From Alphaproteobacteria bacterium (lineage in GTDB: Bacteria; Pseudomonadota; Alphaproteobacteria; JAAXGF01): a stretch of 64,000 nt of DNA. Below, piece by piece: positions 34,205 to 47,452 of this stretch; position 1 is the first letter of the stretch; the number at the start of each line of letters is the position of its first letter. Both the position numbers and the translations under genes were made by a program. The DNA lies in NCBI GenBank assembly GCA_963555825.3, contig CAUVXB020000002.1:1120001-1184000 (forward strand), read 5' to 3'. The notes under the pieces were generated by a model. It saw only the letters and a list, made by a program, of their open reading frames with translations, was not told where the DNA came from and ran no database searches.

Positions 34205-34678
34205 CTAGCCAAGGATCTCCCAGCTGCCGTCGGGTTGGCGGCAGGCGGTGCCGTAGGCCGACTGCAGCTCGCCGCCGACGGTGACGGTCTGCTGGTATTC
34301 GCGGCAGTAGCGGCCGGTCTCGGACTGATAGGTCGCGGTCGGCGTGATGGAACCCGAATTGCCGCTGTCGGGGTTGATCCAGGATGAGGTCGCGCCGGTC
34401 GGTTGATACTCGAGCGTCTGCTGCGCGTTGCGCTCGGCATAGGCGATGTCGGCCTTGTCGAGCGAGCGGCCGACCTCGTTGCCGAGCAGCCCGCCCAGAA
34501 GTACGCCCGCGCCGACGGCGGCGAGCTGGCCCGTGCCCGAGCCGATCTGGCTGCCCGCCAGGCCGCCGAGACCGGCGCCGATCAGCGTGCCCAGCGTCTG
34601 CTTGTCGCCCTGATCCGAAACGCAGGCGCCGAGCGACAGCGCGGCGGCGAAGACGATGGCGATCGATGGATTCTTCAT
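34205..34678 (-). CDS. 17-kDa surface antigen-like (RT0821/Lpp0805) lipoprotein
   Basis: Lipobox LGAC, glycine zipper, WINPDSG, CREYQQ, GTACRQPDGSW. Confidence 0.9.
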   Translation of the reverse strand: MKNPSIAIVFAAALSLGACVSDQGDKQTLGTLIGAGLGGLAGSQIGSGTGQLAAVGAGVLLGGLLGNEVGRSLDKADIAYAERNAQQTLEYQPTGATSSWINPDSGNSGSITPTATYQSETGRYCREYQQTVTVGGELQSAYGTACRQPDGSWEILG

Positions 34679-34956
34679 GGTTCGAATGCCTCTTTCATGT
34701 GAGCCGTGCAGCTCTCGAACTGTATATAAACATAGATGCAAATATGATGTCAATAGTTTTTTCACATCTACCAATAAATTTGCCGATATAATGTTTAATT
34801 ATTGATTTTAGTTGTTTTGGGGAACCTACTAACGTCGACACACCGCCAGATCGCCAAAATTCTGACATATGCATATATGTTTGTGTGCAAAAATAGTTGC
34901 AAAGTTCCGACGAAAGCGCTATCATCCATCTCATGTTCGATGGTCAGGAACGTCAG

Positions 34957-35367
34957 ATGGCTCTGAAGTACAACGGCGCGCAGCGCGAGGAATACTTCAA
35001 CATGATCAGCCGTGTCGGCAGTCATTGGCTCGACGTGTTCGAGGGCCGGCCGGAATTCTACTCGGCGATTTTCTGGGATCTGTTCACCGGCATGTGGCTC
35101 AACAAGGGACCGGTCAGGAAGACCGACGTGCTGGGATTCATGAAGGCGGTCAAGAGCCCGCACACCGCGGCCAAATACGTCGACACCGCGGTGCGCCGCG
35201 GCATGCTGATCGAGTCGGACAACCCCGACGATGCGCGTTCCAAGCTGCTCGCGCTGTCGCCCGACATGAAGCAGCGTCTCGACGGCTTTCTCGACGCCGC
35301 GGTCAGCGAGGTGCGCAAGACCTGCCGCGTGCTCGACGTCAAGGGCCCCTCGCCCGAGGAGCCGTAG
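34957..35367 (+). CDS. MarR-like winged-helix protein
   Basis: TAAKYVD..VRRGML.E..NPDDARSKLL.LS wing motif. Confidence 0.7.
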   Translation: MALKYNGAQREEYFNMISRVGSHWLDVFEGRPEFYSAIFWDLFTGMWLNKGPVRKTDVLGFMKAVKSPHTAAKYVDTAVRRGMLIESDNPDDARSKLLALSPDMKQRLDGFLDAAVSEVRKTCRVLDVKGPSPEEP

Positions 35368-35574
35368 GCGCGCTCGATCGCGCCCATCCCCTGTCGAGCG
35401 ACCCCCCTTTCGCGCCCCGGCGAGGCGTTCCGCGGCACGAACGGTTGCGCCGCGCCGAACGAGGGACCGCGGGTTCTCGCCGACACCGCATTCGAACGAT
35501 CCCGACCGCCCGAGCCGGGCAAGCGGTGCCGCGCCCGAGGTCACCCGGGACGCCGGGATCGGCCGCCCCCGGCA

Positions 35575-35781
35575 CTACCAGGTCGGTCCGATTACGGGAA
35601 GGAGGTCGTGCTGCAGGCCCTTGACGGCGCTTTCGGTGCCACGCCCGAAAGCCCCGTCGATGCCGCGCCTGAGATAACCCAGCGCGCGCAGGTGCCGCTG
35701 CAGATCGCGGATCTGCGAGTCGCTCGCGCCGGTGCCGGGTCGCTTGAGCACGAGCCCGGCTTGTTGGTAGCTCAAGGGCAT
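35575..35781 (-). pseudogene. Peptidoglycan-binding domain (PG_binding_1) fragment
   Basis: IRDLQRHLRALGY..GIDGAFGRGTESAVKGLQ, then an abrupt stop. Confidence 0.7.
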
Positions 35782-35792
35782 CGCGTGTCTCC

Positions 35793-35987
35793 TTAAGTGA
35801 CCGCGGCGCTCATCACGGCGAGCACCGCCGACTGTGCCGACCCCGGACTCAATCGGCCCGTGGCCTTGTCGACGATCAGACCGCGCATGTTGATGGCACC
35901 GGTTAATATCTTTATGCCGATCACCAACGTCAGGAATCCGAGCACGGCCCAGACCTCAAAGCGGATTACGGGAATGAGCTGCTCCAC
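35793..35987 (-). CDS. Small membrane protein (possibly truncated)
   Basis: RBS GGGAG; one strong TM helix followed by TGAINMRGL. Confidence 0.55.
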   Translation of the reverse strand: MEQLIPVIRFEVWAVLGFLTLVIGIKILTGAINMRGLIVDKATGRLSPGSAQSAVLAVMSAAVT

Positions 35988-36123
35988 GCCGGCGCTCCCA
36001 AGTGTTCTATCTGCGCCACTCGATCATCAGCCCGTTTCGCGCGAGCAGCAGAAGCCGAGTGGCCGGAAAGGCGTTGCCTAAATGCCATCCAAATTCGCCG
36101 ACAATTAGTCGCCGGGTCAACCA

Positions 36124-36270
36124 TTAGCTGTCGGGAAAGGTCGCGGTGACTTTCCACGTCCCGTTTTCTTTTTCCTTCTCAACCTTCGTGGCTCCCGCAT
36201 CCTTAAAATCCTTGACGGTGCTTTCGACTTCGCTGTCGGGAACACCAGTTAGCTCCTCCCGTCTCGGCAT
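36124..36270 (-). CDS. 48-aa hypothetical protein (below the ORF track cut-off)
   Basis: RBS AGGAGAGG; MPRREELTGVPDSEVESTVKDFKDAGATKVEKEKENGTWKVTATFPDS. Confidence 0.7.
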   Translation of the reverse strand: MPRREELTGVPDSEVESTVKDFKDAGATKVEKEKENGTWKVTATFPDS

Positions 36271-36442
36271 TTCATCCTCTCCTAAATCACGGGGTTAATC
36301 GAGTCTCATGTAAGAGGGGCGAACCCCCGGGCAGAACCGGGAGCAAGCGGGATGCCTGGAACGGAATACCCGCACAGAGACTCGGTTTTGCAGACGCTTG
36401 GCCCCACATGCTGAACCTCCGTGCTCGGGGGTCTTGCCCCTG

Positions 36443-36649
36443 TTACAGTCTCAAGTTCGTGATTGCCTTGCGGCGCGCATCAGCCAATAGATTTCCTCGA
36501 AGAAACCTGTTAATCGAAATTTGTTCGAGATTGTTTTTCTTCATCCATTCTCGCATCCGCTGTTCAGTCAGTGCATCCGCATTGTCACCGTCAGGTTTCA
36601 AAAAACGCCTCAACACATCGTCAGGTTTGTCGTCGAAAATTGGAAACAT
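36443..36649 (-). CDS. 68-aa protein paralogous to the C-terminal domain of the upstream lipoprotein
   Basis: LRRFLKPDG..MREWMKKNN..ISI aligns with LRKFWKPDG..IQAWMDANN.VSI. Confidence 0.65.
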   Translation of the reverse strand: MFPIFDDKPDDVLRRFLKPDGDNADALTEQRMREWMKKNNLEQISINRFLRGNLLADARRKAITNLRL

Positions 36650-36692
36650 TCATCTGCCTTTTTTACAGACCCAACGCTTGAACTGATTCAAC

Positions 36693-38346
36693 GGGTGCGA
36701 GTCTCGCATGGCAGTGATGTCTGCGGCTTGGTTCGTTGAGTTCAGGCAGCGATTGCCATGGCTGCTGCACGTGGACTGATGTTGTCGTTGGCCGGTGTGT
36801 CGGTTGCGCTGATCAGGGCCTTCCATGCCCGCTCGAAGCGGCCGGATTTGATCAGGGCGCGGAAGGTCAGAACAGCCTGTCCGCCGACGATCCGCCAGCG
36901 CATGCCGGAGCGCTTCATGCGCTGTGTCACCAGGGTCTTGTTGGCAGCTTCGACCACGCCTGAGCCGATGGCGATGCCCTCTTCCTTCAGGGCGTGGTAG
37001 CGCATGCGATGGCGATGCTTGCGGAAGAAGGCGAGTTCCCGCTCGGTCTCGGCCCGGTCCGGCGCAGCGGCGGCATCGCGAAGGTGGCGCAGCGCCCGGA
37101 TCACCTTGGCGACGCCACGGGGATCGTGACGGAGGATCTCGCGGTACTTCTCGAACCAGCCGGGCGCCACGGCATGGTCGGACGCGGTTTGCAGATGTTC
37201 GCAAGCATGCCAGAAGTCGATCACCTCGGTTTCGGGCGACAGGGTCTCCAGGAAGGTCCAGTTGTCGGCGGCGCCATCGGCGATAGCGACGATCCCGATC
37301 TCGGGGCGTGCTCGCCTGATGTGTGCGACTTCGCTTGCAAGCTGCGCCTTCAGCGTGAGCTTGCCGCTCTCCGGCATGCGGCCGAGATAGAGGGTCTTCA
37401 GGCGCTTGCCCTCGGCGTCGTGGAAGGAGACCGTGCCGCAGGCAGCCTCGCGCCAGGAGGCCTTGGCGCGACCGTCCTCGCCGGGTCTCAGCGGCACCAT
37501 GACGCCGTCGAGGGAGACCGAGGCGGTGGTCGCGTCCTGCGGTATGCCCTCGGCCTCACGGATGCTGCCCAGCGTCTCCGGGCCGAGGCTCTCCCAGCAT
37601 TCGTGCATGCTCAGGGTCAGGCGCTGCAGGGTGCTCACCGACGGCGTCATGGCGCCGGTCTTCGCAAAGAACGCCGCCGCTTCCCGGGCCGTGCAGTGAC
37701 CCATCATCAGCAGACCGAGCTCGGCCGCCGGCCGCGTCAGGTAATCGTCGACGAGGCCCAGGCTCTCGTCGACCGGCACCGGCGATGCCCCGCTCGCGCC
37801 GCTGCGGTAACGCGCTCGCCGGTAGGTCACCGGACCGAGCGAGGTCATGATCGTCTTCGGCGTCACCGCGACCCGGAACCAGCTCTGCCCGTCCCGCTCG
37901 ATCCGGGAAGCGCCATCGTCCCGGTTCTCGATGACGGCGCCCATGACATCGCGAGCGAACTCGTTCGTGGCCTCACGCACCCGCAACTCGACCTCCTCGG
38001 GCGCCTCGGGGCGCGGCTCGGAACGAAGCTCCTCGCGACACAGTGCGAGCACCCGGGCGGCCGCCTCGACGACCCGAGGAGGCAGGCCGGAAAGATCGAT
38101 GGACGAAGGCGCCGGAGGCGGGGATACTGCCATGGGAATGCTCCCGATGTTGGGTTTCGAGACACGGCATCGTACCGCTTCTGGCGGTGCGGAGCGTTCC
38201 CACCTTCCCCTGCTCGACCCTGCCGTCGTGACAAAATCCTGCCTTGGAGCGGCCCATTGTCACGAATAGCCGATTTCGGCCGTTCGTCTCGACACAAAAA
38301 ACGCACTAAATCAATGACTTAGATTTTCCATACCAGACCCACACCC
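36693..38346 (-). mobile_element. ISKra4-like insertion sequence (1654 bp)
   Basis: Imperfect IRs GGGTGTGGGTCTGGTATGG / GGGTGCGAGTCTCGCATGG; 8-bp duplication GATTCAAC/GCTTCAAC (one mismatch). Confidence 0.85.
36742..38133 (-). CDS. ISKra4/UPF0236-type transposase
   Basis: SLDGVMVP, ADGAADNW, DFWHACEHL, IGSGVVEAANK, RMKRSGMRW. Confidence 0.9.
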   Translation of the reverse strand: MAVSPPPAPSSIDLSGLPPRVVEAAARVLALCREELRSEPRPEAPEEVELRVREATNEFARDVMGAVIENRDDGASRIERDGQSWFRVAVTPKTIMTSLGPVTYRRARYRSGASGASPVPVDESLGLVDDYLTRPAAELGLLMMGHCTAREAAAFFAKTGAMTPSVSTLQRLTLSMHECWESLGPETLGSIREAEGIPQDATTASVSLDGVMVPLRPGEDGRAKASWREAACGTVSFHDAEGKRLKTLYLGRMPESGKLTLKAQLASEVAHIRRARPEIGIVAIADGAADNWTFLETLSPETEVIDFWHACEHLQTASDHAVAPGWFEKYREILRHDPRGVAKVIRALRHLRDAAAAPDRAETERELAFFRKHRHRMRYHALKEEGIAIGSGVVEAANKTLVTQRMKRSGMRWRIVGGQAVLTFRALIKSGRFERAWKALISATDTPANDNISPRAAAMAIAA

Positions 38347-38412
38347 GCTTCAACCCTCAACTCAGCAAAGTCCGCGCTGAGAATAAAGAAAGCGATGGAA
38401 ACATTTACATTA

Positions 38413-39132
38413 GGGGCTGTCCTAGCTAAGCGGCATGCTTAGGCTAGGATGGCGGGATGTACGAGAGGAAAAGCCGGCTCAGTGATTGGAAGCGCGGTCG
38501 TCTGATTGAGCACTTCGTTGCGGGTACGACGGCTCGGGCAGCAGCCGAACTGGTTGGCGTCCACCGGAACACGGCGGCCTCGTTTTATACTCGGCTTCGC
38601 AAGGTGATTGCCGAGGAAATGGAGAAGGCCTCGCCTTTTGCCGGAGAGATCGAGGTTGATGAGAGTTATTTTGGCGGCCGCCGCAAAGGCAAGCGGGGTC
38701 GAGGCGCTGGCGGAAAAGTCCCGGTTTTCGGGCTTTTGAAGCGAGGTGGGAAGGTCTACACGGCGATGATTCCCAATGCCCGGACTGCCACGTTGATGCC
38801 GATTATGGAGCGTATGATCCGGCCTGACAGCATCGTCTATACGGACGGCTTTTCGAGCTATGATGCCCTGGACGTTTCGGACTTCCACCATGTTCGGATC
38901 AATCACTCGGAGCGGTTCGTCGACGAGCGGAGCCATATCAACGGGATCGAGAACTTCTGGAACCAGGCGAAGCGGCATTTACGGCGCTTCAATGGCGTCC
39001 CGAAACAGAGCTTTCACCTGTTCCTCAAGGAGTGCGAATGGCGGTTCAACGGAGGTGACCACCGAGAACTGCTTAACCAATTGAAGACATGGATTATTTT
39101 GAGACAGAAACGCCCTTAGCTAGGACAGCCCG
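38413..39132 (+). mobile_element. IS1595-family (IS1016-like) element, copy 1 (720 bp)
   Basis: IRs GGGCTGTCCTAGCTAAG / CTTAGCTAGGACAGCCC; TTACATTA duplication. Confidence 0.93.
38457..39119 (+). CDS. IS1595 family transposase
   Basis: EVDESYFGG, GKRGRG, YTDG, HINGIENFW, FLKECEWRFN. Confidence 0.95.
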   Translation: MYERKSRLSDWKRGRLIEHFVAGTTARAAAELVGVHRNTAASFYTRLRKVIAEEMEKASPFAGEIEVDESYFGGRRKGKRGRGAGGKVPVFGLLKRGGKVYTAMIPNARTATLMPIMERMIRPDSIVYTDGFSSYDALDVSDFHHVRINHSERFVDERSHINGIENFWNQAKRHLRRFNGVPKQSFHLFLKECEWRFNGGDHRELLNQLKTWIILRQKRP

Positions 39133-40166
39133 TTACATTATTCGCATCCATCCAGGCTTGTATCGTGTCTCTGTTCCCAACGACGATATTGTTACCGTCA
39201 GGCTTCCAGAATTTTCTGAGGGTGATGCCAGCGTCGTCCTTTTCGAATTTTCCTTTAACAATATTCTTAATTTCCTCATCTGCCTGCCCTTCCTTGACCC
39301 CAGAATCCTTTTGAACGGCCTGCAGGGCGCCGAGAAAGGTACCTGCTTGGTAGTAGATGTGCAGATCCGAGAGCGCCTGCTCGAACGAGTAGACCTCCAA
39401 AGTCTGACCACTACCTTTGAGAATTGGAATCAGGGCCTTCTTACGCTCGGCGTTCATCGCCGTGATGAGCACCGGGACGGTCTTCTGTTGGAAAAAATTC
39501 TTGTTGATCGAGGTCCGCGACGCGCTCGTGCCGCCGGAGATAGCGGCGATAATTGCCTTCGTCGAGGCCGCACCGACGAGAGTGCCCGCCAGATCGAGGC
39601 CGATCACCAAAATGTCTGCTGCGGTATCCAGTTGTGCCTTATCGACGGCAAATCTTCTGATAAACTTAATGTACTGAATGTTCATCAGCGTTAGCCTCAC
39701 GCCAATAAACTCGTTGCGTTTGTCGAGTCTTTCATTCGGCTTAGTAGCATAAAAGCCTGTTACTGTTACCTGTTTTGTCTTGAGCTCGTCCTCCAGATCC
39801 TGAATATCCTGGTCTACGTTGAACGACTGGTCCGGTGCGCCCGGTTTCGTGATTGCGCCGCATCCCCCTACAGCGAGGCCGCAGCAAACCAACAATGCCG
39901 GAAATATTGCCCTGAGTCTCATCGCCGCCTCCCCTGCGCATCGGCAGCGCGGGAGGCTCGTCGGCGTTTCCCGGACCGCAGACACGCTATGTTATCTTGG
40001 CGGTCGTTGCGCCGCCGAGAAATGATAGCAATTTCTAACCGTTTAGCAATTTTTTAGTTGTTGTTTCAACCGGTAACGGAAAAAGACTATGACGTGTCGC
40101 CACAGGCGTCGACACGCAGCCGCTAGGCTCGTGAGGTCGTCGGCCGGCGAACCGATATGCGGACGA

Positions 40167-40226: not shown

Positions 40227-40310
40227 GGCTTGCCTGGACACCGCGGTCGGCGAGGTGTGCAAGACCGGCCGCGTGCGCGACGTCAAGGCCCCTCGCCCGA
40301 GGGGCCGTGA
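40227..40310 (+). repeat. Degenerate direct copy of the 3' end of the MarR-like gene (35284-35367)
   Basis: CCGCGGTC.GCGAGGTG.GCAAGACC.GCCGCGTGC.CGACGTCAAGG..CCCCTCGCCCGAGG.GCCGT present in both. Confidence 0.88.
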
Positions 40311-40357
40311 GGGACGCGCCGCCCGCACCCGCGCATCCCGGTCGGGGCGGCGGTGCC

Positions 40358-41671
40358 TCAGACCGGCAGGCGCACCAGCGCCCTGAGCCCGCCCGCCTCG
40401 GAGGTCGACAACAACACGTCGCCGCCGTGGCCGCGCACCACGTCGCGGGCGATCGCGAGGCCCAAGCCGACGCCGCCGGTCTCGACGTTGCGCGAGGCGT
40501 CGAGCCGGTGGAAGGCGCGGAACACCGCTTCACGGTCGTCCTCGGGGATGCCCGGCCCGTCATCGTCGATGGCGACCTCGACGACATCGCTGCGGCGTTC
40601 GGCCGCGACGGTGACGTGCTCGCCGTGGCGCAACGCATTTTCCACCAGGTTGGAGAAGCAGCGCTTGAGCGCGTTGGGCCGCACTGGCACGGTGAGGTCG
40701 CCTTTGCTCGTCAGGGCGATATCGCCGCCGTTGCGCCGGCCGCTGGCGACGACCTCGGCGAGCAGGCTCGACAGGTCGGTCGGCGTCGGCGTCTCGGGAC
40801 CCTCGCCCTTGGCGAAACCAAGATAGGCTTCGATCATCTTCTCCATCTCGGCGACGTCGGCCTCGAGGCTGGCGACGTCCTCGCCCTCGCCCAGCATGGC
40901 GAGCTGCAGGCGCATGCGCGTCAGCGGCGTGCGCAGGTCGTGGCTGACGCCGGCGAGCATCTCGGTGCGCTGGGTGATCTGGCGCCGGATGCGCTCGCGC
41001 ATGGCGATGAAGGCGGCCGCCGCCTGGCGCACCTCGCGCGCGCCCTCGGGCTTGAAGTCAACGACCTCGCGGCCCTTGCCGAAGCCTTCGGCGGCCACCG
41101 CGAGCCGGCGGATCGGGCGCATCTGGTTACGCAGGAAATAGATTGCCACGGCGAGCAGCACGATCGAGGAGCCGACCATCCACATGATGAAAATGTAGGT
41201 CGTTGAGCTGAACAGCCGCTTGCGCGAGGTGACCACGTGCATGACGCCGTCGTTGAGCTGCACCGAGATCGCGACGCGCTTGGTCAGGCTGCCCGAAGCG
41301 ACCAGGAAGGGCCGGCCGAGGCGCCGGCTCAGCGTCGGGATCAGATCGGGGTAGAGGTAGATGGTGTCGTCGGGCGCGGTCGTCGTCTCGAGCACCGCGC
41401 CCGCCTCGATGCGCGTATCCAGGCCAAGGAAGACGCGCGACGTCCACAGCACGAAGGCGCGGTCGTCGTCCTCGGGAAACGCCTCCAGCATGCTGATCAC
41501 GGCGCTGATGTCGCCGACCAGGCCGATCGCCAGATAGCGGCTCACCGTGTCCCAGTGGCGTTCGTAGAAGATATAGGCCGAGATCACCTGCAGCAGGATG
41601 AATGGCGTCACGATGATCAACAGCGAGCGGCCGAACAGCGTGCGCGGCACGAGGCGTTTGAGAGGATGCAT
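40358..41671 (-). CDS. EnvZ-like sensor histidine kinase
   Basis: Two TM segments plus HAMP; SHDLRTPLTR, NLVENA, DDDGPGI, GLGLAI. Confidence 0.93.
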   Translation of the reverse strand: MHPLKRLVPRTLFGRSLLIIVTPFILLQVISAYIFYERHWDTVSRYLAIGLVGDISAVISMLEAFPEDDDRAFVLWTSRVFLGLDTRIEAGAVLETTTAPDDTIYLYPDLIPTLSRRLGRPFLVASGSLTKRVAISVQLNDGVMHVVTSRKRLFSSTTYIFIMWMVGSSIVLLAVAIYFLRNQMRPIRRLAVAAEGFGKGREVVDFKPEGAREVRQAAAAFIAMRERIRRQITQRTEMLAGVSHDLRTPLTRMRLQLAMLGEGEDVASLEADVAEMEKMIEAYLGFAKGEGPETPTPTDLSSLLAEVVASGRRNGGDIALTSKGDLTVPVRPNALKRCFSNLVENALRHGEHVTVAAERRSDVVEVAIDDDGPGIPEDDREAVFRAFHRLDASRNVETGGVGLGLAIARDVVRGHGGDVLLSTSEAGGLRALVRLPV

Positions 41672-41697
41672 GGTCGCGGCCCGTCTCCCGATCCCGT

Positions 41698-41967
41698 TAG
41701 TGGATAGAGTCCAACATAGGGCAGCCATACGACGGCGTCCCAAGGTCGTCCGGAAAGGCGCCCGATGTGCGGTGATGCTGGAGAGCATCACAAGCATCGG
41801 GCAACGCATCCGGCGGCCTTGGGACGCCGCCCTTCGGGCGCCATATCCCGGCTTCTCGGGGCGTCGAACACCCTTGCCGATGCCTCGGCATCGCCCGCGG
41901 GCGCTCGCCTGCCGAGAAACCGGGATATGGGATCGTATGGGCACCATATGTTGGACTCTATCCGCTA
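41698..41967. mobile_element. About 270-bp MITE-like element (family 2)
   Basis: About 35-bp imperfect TIRs TAGTGGATAGAGTCCAACATAGGGCAGCCATACGA / TCGTATGGGCACCATATGTTGGACTCTATCCGCTA; TA at both ends. Confidence 0.82.
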
Positions 41968-42648
41968 ATTGGCGCGCAGCACGTAGCCCGCGCCCCATAC
42001 GGTCTGCAGGTAGCGCGGCGCCTTGGGATCGGCCTCGATCTTACGCCGAAGCCGCGCGATCTGCACGTCGATGGTGCGCGGGTTGGCGCCCAGCCTGCTC
42101 TCGCGCCCGAGCCGCTCGCGCGTCAGCGTGACGCCCGGGTTGAGCGCGAAGATGCCGAGCAGCCCGGCCTCGCCCGAGGTCAGCCGCACCGGCTCGTCGC
42201 GGCGGCGGAGCGCGCCGCGCTCGAGATCGAAGCAAAACTCGCCGAAACGGACTTCGGGCTCGGCCGGCGGCACCGGGCCGGCGCGGCGCAGAATGCCGCC
42301 GATGCGCAGCAACAGCTCGCGCGGCTCGAACGGCTTGGGCAGGTAGTCGTCGGCGCCGCTCTCGAGCCCGGCGATGCGGTCGTCGGCGTCGCCCATCGCG
42401 GTCAACAGGAGGATCGGCACGCCTGAGTCGCGGCGTAGCGACTCGGTCAGTTCGAGGCCGCTTTCGCCCGGCATCATGACATCGAGCACGATCATGTCGA
42501 AGGCGAGGCCGGCGAGTCGCGCGCGGGCGGCGGCTGCGTTCTCGGCGGTGGTCACGCGGAAGCCATTGTCGGCCAGGTACTTGCGCAACAGGTCGCGCAG
42601 GCGGCGATCGTCGTCGACGACCAGGATATGCGGCGGCTCGGCGGTCAC
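41965..42648 (-). CDS. OmpR-family response regulator (PetR-like)
   Basis: VVDDD, LDVMMPG, GADDYLPKPF, winged-helix tail QTVWGAGY. Confidence 0.93.
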   Translation of the reverse strand: MTAEPPHILVVDDDRRLRDLLRKYLADNGFRVTTAENAAAARARLAGLAFDMIVLDVMMPGESGLELTESLRRDSGVPILLLTAMGDADDRIAGLESGADDYLPKPFEPRELLLRIGGILRRAGPVPPAEPEVRFGEFCFDLERGALRRRDEPVRLTSGEAGLLGIFALNPGVTLTRERLGRESRLGANPRTIDVQIARLRRKIEADPKAPRYLQTVWGAGYVLRAN

Positions 42649-46732: not shown

Positions 46733-47452
46733 CGGGCTGTCCTAGCTAAGGGCGTTTCTGTCTCAAAATAATCCATGTCTTCAATTGGTTAAGCAGTTCT
46801 CGGTGGTCACCTCCGTTGAACCGCCATTCGCACTCCTTGAGGAACAGGTGAAAGCTCTGTTTCGGGACGCCATTGAAGCGCCGTAAATGCCGCTTCGCCT
46901 GGTTCCAGAAGTTCTCGATCCCGTTGATATGGCTCCGCTCGTCGACGAACCGCTCCGAGTGATTGATCCGAACATGGTGGAAGTCCGAAACGTCCAGGGC
47001 ATCATAGCTCGAAAAGCCGTCCGTATAGACGATGCTGTCAGGCCGGATCATACGCTCCATAATCGGCATCAACGTGGCAGTCCGGGCATTGGGAATCATC
47101 GCCGTGTAGACCTTCCCACCTCGCTTCAAAAGCCCGAAAACCGGGACTTTTCCGCCAGCGCCTCGACCCCGCTTGCCTTTGCGGCGGCCGCCAAAATAAC
47201 TCTCATCAACCTCGATCTCTCCGGCAAAAGGCGAGGCCTTCTCCATTTCCTCGGCAATCACCTTGCGAAGCCGAGTATAAAACGAGGCCGCCGTGTTCCG
47301 GTGGACGCCAACCAGTTCGGCTGCTGCCCGAGCCGTCGTACCCGCAACGAAGTGCTCAATCAGACGACCGCGCTTCCAATCACTGAGCCGGCTTTTCCTC
47401 TCGTACATCCCGCCATCCTAGCCTAAGCATGCCGCTTAGCTAGGACAGCCCC
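46733..47452 (-). mobile_element. IS1595-family element, copy 2
   Basis: Same IRs and length as copy 1; flanks TAACTTTA / TAACTTTT. Confidence 0.93.
46746..47408 (-). CDS. IS1595 family transposase
   Basis: Identical translation to 38457-39119. Confidence 0.95.
   Translation of the reverse strand: MYERKSRLSDWKRGRLIEHFVAGTTARAAAELVGVHRNTAASFYTRLRKVIAEEMEKASPFAGEIEVDESYFGGRRKGKRGRGAGGKVPVFGLLKRGGKVYTAMIPNARTATLMPIMERMIRPDSIVYTDGFSSYDALDVSDFHHVRINHSERFVDERSHINGIENFWNQAKRHLRRFNGVPKQSFHLFLKECEWRFNGGDHRELLNQLKTWIILRQKRP

Follow-up and report, generated by a model that had tools for sequence, protein, structure and literature searches.

Organization of the locus and reconstruction of the interrupted lipoprotein gene

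The window analyzed here is a stretch of 64,000 nucleotides (nt) of contig CAUVXB020000002.1 (positions 1,120,001 to 1,184,000, forward strand) from the alphaproteobacterial assembly GCA_963555825.3. It contains a lipoprotein gene that is split by two insertion sequences (ISs) and is followed on the same strand by a series of small open reading frames (ORFs). Related genes in other genomes encode a family of lipoproteins whose C-terminal tails are exchanged together with a small partner protein. The two-gene core, its lock-and-key character, the exchange of cassettes, and the association with leaderless hydrolases of the cell envelope are well supported. A preliminary description of this DNA had placed five ORFs on the minus strand, encoding a lipoprotein, a stand-alone domain of 68 amino acids (aa), a 48-aa protein, a 64-aa membrane protein, and a peptidoglycan (PG)-binding protein, and the ORF list contains all five where they had been placed (Table 1).

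The lipoprotein gene is indeed interrupted by two ISs, each of which is accompanied by an 8-bp target duplication. The three-piece join proposed for it was correct, because pieces 2 and 3 reproduce the C-terminus of the intact 289-aa relative P0001. Residues 1-263 showed 98% identity to that protein over 263 aa, and the piece between the ISs translates to NVSIAFFILSADFAELRVE, as in the P0001 tail; the stop codon lies at 36663-36665. The same comparison identified the ATG at 39922 as the true start. ORF 39116-39985 on the minus strand, which begins at an upstream GTG and ends inside an IS, is also 289 aa long, and this length is a coincidence. The copy of the module in the window is inactive, and the decay suggested for it is borne out by the two insertions and by a hydrolase gene reduced to its PG-binding domain.

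Table 1. Features of the locus and their positions in the window, ordered in the reading direction of the lipoprotein gene.
Feature	Coordinates	Strand	Basis or further details
Right copy of the imperfect direct repeat	40229..40311	+	pseudo 3' end, one base missing; weak protein similarity
Lipoprotein piece 1, codons 1-263: signal peptide, lipobox Cys21, helical body, first part of the tail	39134..39922	-	comparison with P0001
IS1595-family element, 720 bp	38413..39132	+	transposase 38457-39119; duplication TAATGTAA at 39133-39140 and 38405-38412
Lipoprotein piece 2, 19 codons and the start of the next	38347..38405	-	identical to a stretch of the P0001 tail
ISKra4-like element, 1654 bp	36693..38346	-	transposase 36742-38133; duplication GTTGAAGC/GTTGAATC at 38347-38354 and 36685-36692
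Lipoprotein piece 3, last 6 codons and stop	36663..36684	-	VQALGL-stop, as at the end of P0001
68-aa ORF, free-standing second copy of a type-A tail (orphan) with its own start codon	36443..36649	-	tail profile, E 3.1e-21
48-aa small partner of type S48, leaderless, with a good ribosome-binding site	36124..36270	-	homologues behind type-A lipoproteins
64-aa ORF with one hydrophobic helix; module membership doubtful	35793..35987	-	G+C 59-63%
68-aa PG_binding_1 ORF, N-terminal stump of a PG hydrolase gene	35575..35781	-	PF01471, 8.5e-10; endolysin PHROGs
Left copy of the imperfect ~85-nt direct repeat	35283..35368	+	3' end of ORF 34897-35367

A family of lipoproteins with a conserved body

Members of the family are about 290 aa long. 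Approximately 185 conserved residues follow the lipobox cysteine and precede tails of 65-100 residues that belong to unrelated types. The lipobox cysteine (Cys21) is invariant in all 76 aligned relatives, and a signal peptide with a lipobox is visible in 45 of 49 N-termini. In some members (P0007, P0020, and L058), the N-terminal conserved motif is separated from the body by an insertion of some 140 residues in which Ala, Glu, Lys, and Thr are abundant. Two distant lipoprotein paralogues are arranged in tandem on one contig at locus L069 (G273:C69), with masked bases between them.

The module had been said to match no named system, and this holds for the lipoprotein, which has no family in Pfam, NCBIfam, PHROGs, or PADLOC. 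Nor did these libraries contain a match to any of 39 small partners or to the ORFs of 68, 48, and 64 aa. The 47 relatives obtained in the first search lack Pfam domains, and in the Atlas only unnamed clusters were found, which have up to 1,809 members, look alike, and are likewise without a Pfam family. For the longer family members, nothing exceeded any curated library cut-off. Fused longer forms of 638-2000 aa were not found, which is weak evidence, as lengths of 461-638 aa were not covered. Keyword searches of the literature returned no description of the family; such searches cannot find unnamed families, so its absence from the described literature is not shown.

An alignment-based scan of one genome per species revealed 50 loci, whereas a scan of the genome contigs with a single protein found none. 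Judged by record titles, the loci belong to Hyphomicrobiales, Verrucomicrobiota, Planctomycetota, Deltaproteobacteria, Chlorobiaceae, Acidobacteriota, Aeromonas, Ramlibacter, Undibacterium, Methylococcaceae, and others, and many of them come from metagenome bins. Counting the source genome, the family occurs in 7 of 401 genomes of the phylum and in 4 of 61 related genomes; among the other three of these four, one match was solid. A metagenome scan yielded three loci only, all of them short. One weak relative was detected in 72,556 plasmids, and no lipoprotein relative was found by tblastn in 50,697 phage records.

The AlphaFold2 model of the lipoprotein, built from 76 sequences, is all-helical, with a mean predicted local distance difference test (pLDDT) value of 80.7. 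It had no Foldseek match at E <=0.001, and its best VIA Z score (7.5) was obtained with generic helical bundles. A profile search of the PDB with the lipoprotein returned only a weak match to BamD at the signal-peptide end (E 0.0068). An internal hydrophobic helical hairpin had been proposed for this protein. The stretch itself is real and conserved (residues 105-137, with a 71% share of Ala, Gly, Leu, Thr, and Ser), whereas the hairpin could not be confirmed: residues 110-138 have pLDDT values below 50, and transmembrane-like hydropathy (Kyte-Doolittle value of 1.6) at 105-137 is reached by only 12 of the 76 members, the protein of the window being the most hydrophobic. Membrane insertion is a guess. 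The split lipoprotein does not match the glycine-zipper families PF05433, PF13488, and PF13441 of Pfam. The gene adjoining the segment at 34205-34678 (minus strand) encodes a 17-kDa-antigen/glycine-zipper lipoprotein (PF16998, PF05433) that has no sequence relation to the split lipoprotein, and its matches show that the Pfam scan works for these families.

Exchange of tails and pairing with small proteins

A small leaderless ORF starts from -22 to +36 nt from the lipoprotein stop codon in nearly all of the 50 loci, and the partner could be classified in about 42 of them. The encoded proteins have no family and no signal peptide. An all-against-all BLAST comparison grouped the small ORFs into clusters of 13, 8, 7, and 6 loci, together with several pairs; the profile of the first cluster weakly reached the second and the third (E 5.5e-5 to 0.037). 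Homologues of the 48-aa protein of the window, designated type S48, lie directly behind type-A lipoproteins in L003, L005, L022, L058 (metagenome), and L063. Nearly all S48/S57 partners (window 36124-36270; L003, L005, L011, L012, L015, L016, L019, L025, L058) begin with Met-Pro.

The commonest type, S95, is represented by 239 clusters at E <=0.001. It is free-standing and practically never fused: 148 of the best 150 representatives are 77-123 aa long. The five carrier genomes each have exactly one S95 gene and one lipoprotein gene, which are adjacent, and a search of 401 genomes of the phylum revealed no stray S95 gene. The S95 model (L028:8921-9211 and relatives, alignment A3) reached a pLDDT of 95.2 from 12 sequences and shows a domain rich in beta-alpha-beta elements. 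Foldseek returned no match for it, its best VIA Z score was 5.2, and a profile search of the PDB returned nothing. S95 may thus be an undescribed small fold on the basis of the model, with the reservation that weak or missing matches of the lipoprotein and S95 models are no proof of new folds. Profile-profile comparison of S48 with S95 revealed no relation (probability 0.2%); therefore, the small partners are not claimed as one superfamily. One broken locus has led to three unannotated protein families, namely the lipoprotein, the S95 partner, and the shorter S48/S57 partners.

Phylogenetic analysis of the conserved body showed that the tails have been exchanged repeatedly. On the tree of 66 rows, the tail class changes 18 times, where the minimum is 3 and the mean of shuffled assignments is 26.2; none of 200 shuffles reached as few as 18 changes. 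The well-supported branches by themselves require 4, 5, and 6 changes for the three tail classes, and sister rows with Shimodaira-Hasegawa-like approximate likelihood ratio test (SH-aLRT) values of 96-99 carry different tails, as in the pairs P0004/P0014 and P0010/P0022. One well-supported clade of seven rows, mostly Verrucomicrobia according to record titles, includes both type-A tails with S48-like partners (L003, L005) and type-D tails with partners that carry 'MPATIIT' (L011, L012, L015, L016). The D cassette was also found on a distant body in Aeromonas (L019); likewise, L002 and L009, with distant bodies, share the B cassette and its 94-aa partner. Partner type tracks tail type and not body type. 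Alignment A1 and the tree show a conserved N-terminal part joined to C-terminal domains diversified by recombination, as is characteristic of polymorphic toxins.

Structure prediction for a tail together with a small protein is in line with this pairing. The P0001 tail (residues 212-289) was co-folded with the 48-aa protein of the window, which gave ipSAE values of 0.88, 0.88, and 0.87, compared with 0.01 for the best of three controls; the partner had a pLDDT of at least 89, and the runs shared at least 96% of contacts. Among solved complexes, 116 of 157 attained the mark used, as did 2 of 215 mismatched pairs; these counts are rough, as own alignments were used. The result supports predicted binding between the tail and the small protein, and searches of Pfam and the PDB revealed no comparable complex. 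The first 11 residues of the small protein lie in the modeled interface with the tail. The pair offers several predicted orthogonal binding specificities.

Envelope enzymes in the neighborhood of the pair

The ORFs scanned around the loci comprised 102 same-strand downstream, 47 further, and 129 upstream ORFs. Same-strand genes for PG hydrolases adjoin the pair in 9 of the 50 loci, downstream in eight cases and upstream in one. The downstream enzymes are a GH19-like endolysin with PG_binding_1 (L002), an NlpC/P60 protein (L006), PG_binding_1 with CHAP (L011), Amidase_2 and SLT (L018), PG_binding_1 with GH19 (L022), a GH19-like protein (L023), and SLT enzymes (L025 and L026). The upstream same-strand gene, in L016, encodes an Amidase_2-SH3 protein and abuts the lipoprotein start. 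Two distant relatives are also directly followed by hydrolases, namely L059, located on a plasmid (DUF2272/CHAP), and L068 (PG_binding_1 and SLT). Genes resembling lipases or phospholipase C were found beside the pair in L009, L029, L032, and L037. A signal peptide was absent from 15 of the 16 enzymes inspected.

In L025, L026, P0050, and P0051, the N-terminal part of an SLT transglycosylase is an S48-like domain. The fusion gene is directly followed in two of these by a gene for a conserved protein with a signal peptide (L025:6922-7485 and L026:5327-5851), which looks like a candidate periplasmic immunity protein. A similar signal-peptide gene follows the hydrolase of L002. The 129 upstream ORFs include no recurrent family and no integrase or transposase, and no phage genes were found among the 231 neighboring ORFs scanned.

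Remaining ORFs of the cassette and origin of the segment

The proposed five-gene unit was only partly retained. Two of the partners recur in other loci, the small ORF (about 42 of 50) and the same-strand PG hydrolase (9 of 50), whereas the 68-aa and 64-aa ORFs have no counterparts there. For the two recurring partners, the refuting condition set out in the preliminary description was thus decided in its favor. The 68-aa ORF, which lies between the lipoprotein gene and the small ORF, aligns across the whole tail of 14 type-A lipoproteins and shares 21 of 58 aligned residues (36%) with the tail of its own lipoprotein. The identities do not decide which of the two tails in the window was the original partner of the 48-aa protein. 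Three small-protein profiles and a single tail profile, that of type A, were run against other loci and revealed neither a second or orphan tail nor a spare small gene.

The 64-aa membrane ORF had no homologue in the other loci scanned and no family match in Pfam, NCBIfam, PHROGs, or PADLOC. The PG-binding ORF scored 39.1 bits against a cut-off of 23 and covers positions 2-40 of the 57 in the PG_binding_1 profile. Over 52 columns, it shares 48% identity with the N-terminus of the PG_binding_1-SLT protein of L068, and BLAST against this protein extends the alignment to the domain end with small gaps. Its stop codon lies only about 200 nt from a convergent gene; thus, no catalytic domain is left, and the ORF is a stump.

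The suggestion that the module had been acquired horizontally agrees with the composition and borders of the segment, which has a guanine-plus-cytosine (G+C) content of 48-57% in surroundings of 64-72% and lies between the two copies of an imperfect direct repeat of about 85 nt. The low G+C content covers the lipoprotein gene, the orphan tail, and the gene of the 48-aa protein. The two repeat copies are about 90% identical and enclose the whole low-G+C segment in the manner of attachment sites, with no integrase present. All five ORFs lie between them. The 64-aa and PG-binding ORFs are host-like in G+C content (59-74%), and the value for the latter (67-74%) makes its common origin with the low-G+C genes uncertain.

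Several features were observed at the edges of the segment. ORF 34897-35367, whose 3' end is repeated beside the sensor-kinase gene, encodes 156 aa, has no family, and is rare in relatives; just upstream of it, positions 34750-34900 have a G+C content of 33% in a genome of 64-72%. The segment is flanked on the other side by two overlapping ORFs on the minus strand whose translations, judged by eye, resemble a sensor histidine kinase (40358-41998) and an OmpR-type response regulator (41965-42648).

Both ISs belong to populations spread over the genome. The 720-bp element has perfect terminal inverted repeats of 17 nt, and its transposase matched DDE_Tnp_IS1595 of Pfam (2.1e-34) and NF033547 of NCBIfam (168.4 bits against a cut-off of 75). 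With a DDE transposase, inverted repeats, and the 8-bp target duplication TAATGTAA on both sides, it has the properties of an IS1595 element. The genome contains 13 full-length copies at 100% identity, in addition to two nearly full and three partial ones; another IS1595-family copy lies within the window at 46733-47452. For the transposase of the 1654-bp element, the best NCBIfam model was NF033572 (ISKra4; 5.3e-50), with 170.7 bits, less than the curated cut-off of 205. The mobility of the element is clear from at least 34 full-length copies at >=99% identity among the 40 matches scored, of 246 candidates. Copies elsewhere in the genome confirm the boundaries of both ISs. The near-identity of these copies indicates that both insertions in the lipoprotein gene are recent and part of an IS burst. 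This burst of two ISs extends over the genome, and the dead copy is among its casualties.

Proposed function and alternative explanations

We tentatively regard the family as a mobile envelope module in which a lock-and-key dock links the lipoprotein to envelope-degrading effectors, a proposal whose chances we place somewhat below even. The exchangeable tail and the cognate small protein would form the dock, by which the lipoprotein would hold, position, or hand over a leaderless enzyme, either a PG hydrolase or, less often, a lipase. The gene of the recruited enzyme would come next, or the enzyme would be joined to the small protein in a fusion. Antagonism against neighbors, or controlled lysis and release, would be the likely use. 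The proposal is based on the SLT fusion, on the order of carrier, adaptor, effector, and secreted immunity-like protein, and on the variety of enzymes found at one position. That the dock serves the hydrolase is something we infer, as is every step of export or delivery. If it does serve hydrolases and lipases, the module would represent a new way of deploying leaderless cell-wall weapons.

Taken together, the three families behave like a conflict system: cassettes are exchanged at a fixed junction, pairing is of the lock-and-key kind, and the distribution across Pseudomonadota, Verrucomicrobiota, Planctomycetota, Acidobacteriota, Chlorobi, and others is patchy. A more specific version of the dock proposal, to which we allow only a small chance, is that the lipoprotein acts as the carrier in a route for leaderless envelope-degrading effectors of diderm bacteria that is independent of a type VI secretion system (T6SS), with a secreted immunity protein guarding kin. 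In such a route, the dock would recruit the small adaptor, or an effector that has the adaptor as its N-terminal domain, and cytoplasmic PG hydrolases and lipases would be brought to the envelope or to a neighboring cell.

Several observations weigh against the dock proposal. The invariant lipobox cysteine implies that the tail should be periplasmic, whereas neither the small proteins nor the enzymes carry an export signal. In most members, the hydrophobic stretch is too weak to serve as a stop-transfer helix keeping the tail cytoplasmic (12 of 76 reach the hydropathy value given above). In about 70% of the loci, no hydrolase or lipase was seen nearby, and no secretion machinery recurs in the neighborhoods of the 50 loci. 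The near absence of fusions in S95 fits an immunity protein or a fixed subunit and not an adaptor domain. In addition, binding between the tail and the small protein is a prediction only, and the neighboring ORFs are crude longest-ORF calls made by a script.

The main alternative, to which we give a somewhat lower chance than to the dock, is a polymorphic lipoprotein toxin similar to SitA/SitI. The body would be the escort, the tail the toxin, and the small leaderless protein a cytoplasmic immunity protein, and the hydrolases would be separate weapons in the same conflict island. SitA/SitI are described as polymorphic lipoprotein toxins of myxobacteria (PMC8546572, PMC5562445). One of them describes SitA proteins as lipoproteins with a conserved N-terminal escort domain and a polymorphic C-terminal toxin, with sitI in the same operon, and distinguishes six families of escort domain and a C-terminal nuclease toxin acting in the cytoplasm (PMC8546572).

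Such a toxin would account for much of what was observed. A leaderless partner suits a cytoplasmic immunity protein, which directly explains the compartment mismatch, and the conserved N-terminal part with a polymorphic C-terminal part swapped at a fixed junction would be expected. The partner is encoded immediately downstream, varies together with the tail, and is predicted to bind it tightly; the window has an orphan tail downstream, as in polymorphic toxin loci; S95 is free-standing; and the lipoprotein family has a sparse, patchy occurrence. However, the tails are only 65-100 aa long, and those examined with Pfam have no known toxin domain. No nuclease domain was found in the tails, and the sole tail that was modeled (type A) consists of 68 aa of short helices. 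Members of more than 638 aa that end in an enzymatic C-terminus were not found either, although this is weak evidence because 461-638 aa was not searched. Polymorphic toxins usually have arrays and orphan immunity genes, unlike the single copy found in all five carriers, the lack of another orphan tail or spare small gene in the scanned loci, and the lack of a stray S95 in 401 genomes. It is hard to explain why an immunity domain should be fused to a lytic transglycosylase. Finally, outer membrane exchange, by which SitA is delivered, is described for myxobacteria in the literature available to us, and the family considered here spans many phyla.

Lipoprotein activators of PG enzymes exist, and a housekeeping regulator may be considered, in which an outer-membrane lipoprotein tethers or activates the cell's own autolysin for wall remodeling, with the small protein as a cofactor. 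The lipoprotein is predicted to be an envelope protein, and PG hydrolases are its commonest neighbors. We judge this to be quite improbable, however, for a family that is far too sparse and patchy and whose copy in the window is on low-G+C DNA bracketed by a direct repeat. The tails are shuffled among near-identical bodies, which indicates conflict or specificity and not a fixed cellular partner. Moreover, the hydrolases lack signal peptides and resemble phage endolysins, and lipases also adjoin the pair.

Least probable is a domesticated phage-type lysis or release cassette of an endolysin and a spanin-like outer-membrane lipoprotein, as in the 'type 10' secretion by holin, endolysin, and spanin, in which the lipoprotein would help to breach the outer membrane after the wall is cut: leaderless endolysin-like enzymes do adjoin an outer-membrane-type lipoprotein, and the small membrane ORF of the window lies just upstream of the PG-binding stump, a holin-like position, but the phage records contain no relative of the lipoprotein, neither it nor the small proteins have a PHROG, the other loci with a hydrolase have no holin-like ORF separating it from the small gene, and the 64-aa ORF does not recur. 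A role in phage lysis is thus unlikely, and a polymorphic tail with a cognate partner has, to our knowledge, no place in spanin biology.

Comparison with known systems

The glycine-zipper lipoproteins SlyB and 17-kDa antigen (PF05433/PF13488) have a beta domain. The feature that they share with the present lipoprotein is a conserved segment with much Gly, Ala, Ser, and Thr, which might dip into the membrane. They differ from it because it has no Pfam match to any glycine-zipper family and the rest of it is predicted to be a helical bundle and not a beta domain.

Secretion dependent on a holin and an endopeptidase is described for Serratia (PMC4259817) and Yersinia (PMC10847048). An outer-membrane-type lipoprotein beside a leaderless endolysin-like enzyme is the feature that the present loci share with spanins and with holin-endolysin-spanin secretion so described. 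The present family differs in its polymorphic tail with a predicted binding partner, the lack of a recurrent holin, and its absence from the 50,697 phage records. The o-spanins are much smaller than its lipoprotein.

In Neisseria, MafA is a protein with a lipobox that is encoded beside the polymorphic, cassette-swapping MafB and has been proposed as its surface anchor (PMC3482391). The Maf and present systems, on that description, both have a lipoprotein gene next to a polymorphic partner that swaps cassettes. However, the Maf lipoprotein is invariant and the separate toxin is polymorphic, whereas here the lipoprotein itself carries the polymorphic end. We know of no homology between Maf proteins and the present lipoprotein.

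The VgrG islands of the T6SS contain a carrier with a variable C-terminus, a small cognate adaptor, a leaderless envelope-degrading effector, and periplasmic immunity. The same logic of gene order is seen in the series of lipoprotein, small protein, hydrolase, and signal-peptide gene, whereas the carrier here is a Sec/Lol-type lipoprotein and not a spike protein. Dependence on a T6SS was considered and rejected: PF05943 (TssC) was not found in the source genome, which is 99.3% complete, and was found in only one of the four other carrier genomes, the completeness of which is not known.

Polymorphic toxin systems are recognized, according to PMC3482391, by a conserved trafficking N-terminus, a diversified toxic C-terminus, a downstream immunity gene, and orphan cassettes. 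SitA/SitI, as described, share with the present family a lipobox, a family-defining N-terminus, a modular and polymorphic C-terminus, a cognate gene directly downstream in the same operon, and frequent location on acquired DNA. The body is about 200 aa long here, compared with about 375 aa in SitA, and no sequence relation was found through the family libraries (Pfam and NCBIfam), a search that did not include a SitA sequence. In further contrast to the SitA proteins so described, the present family has tails of 65-100 aa without a toxin domain, occurs in many phyla with one copy per genome, and frequently has leaderless hydrolases as neighbors. If the tail itself were toxic, SitA-like lipoprotein toxins would extend far beyond the myxobacteria and would include a new, very small type of toxin.

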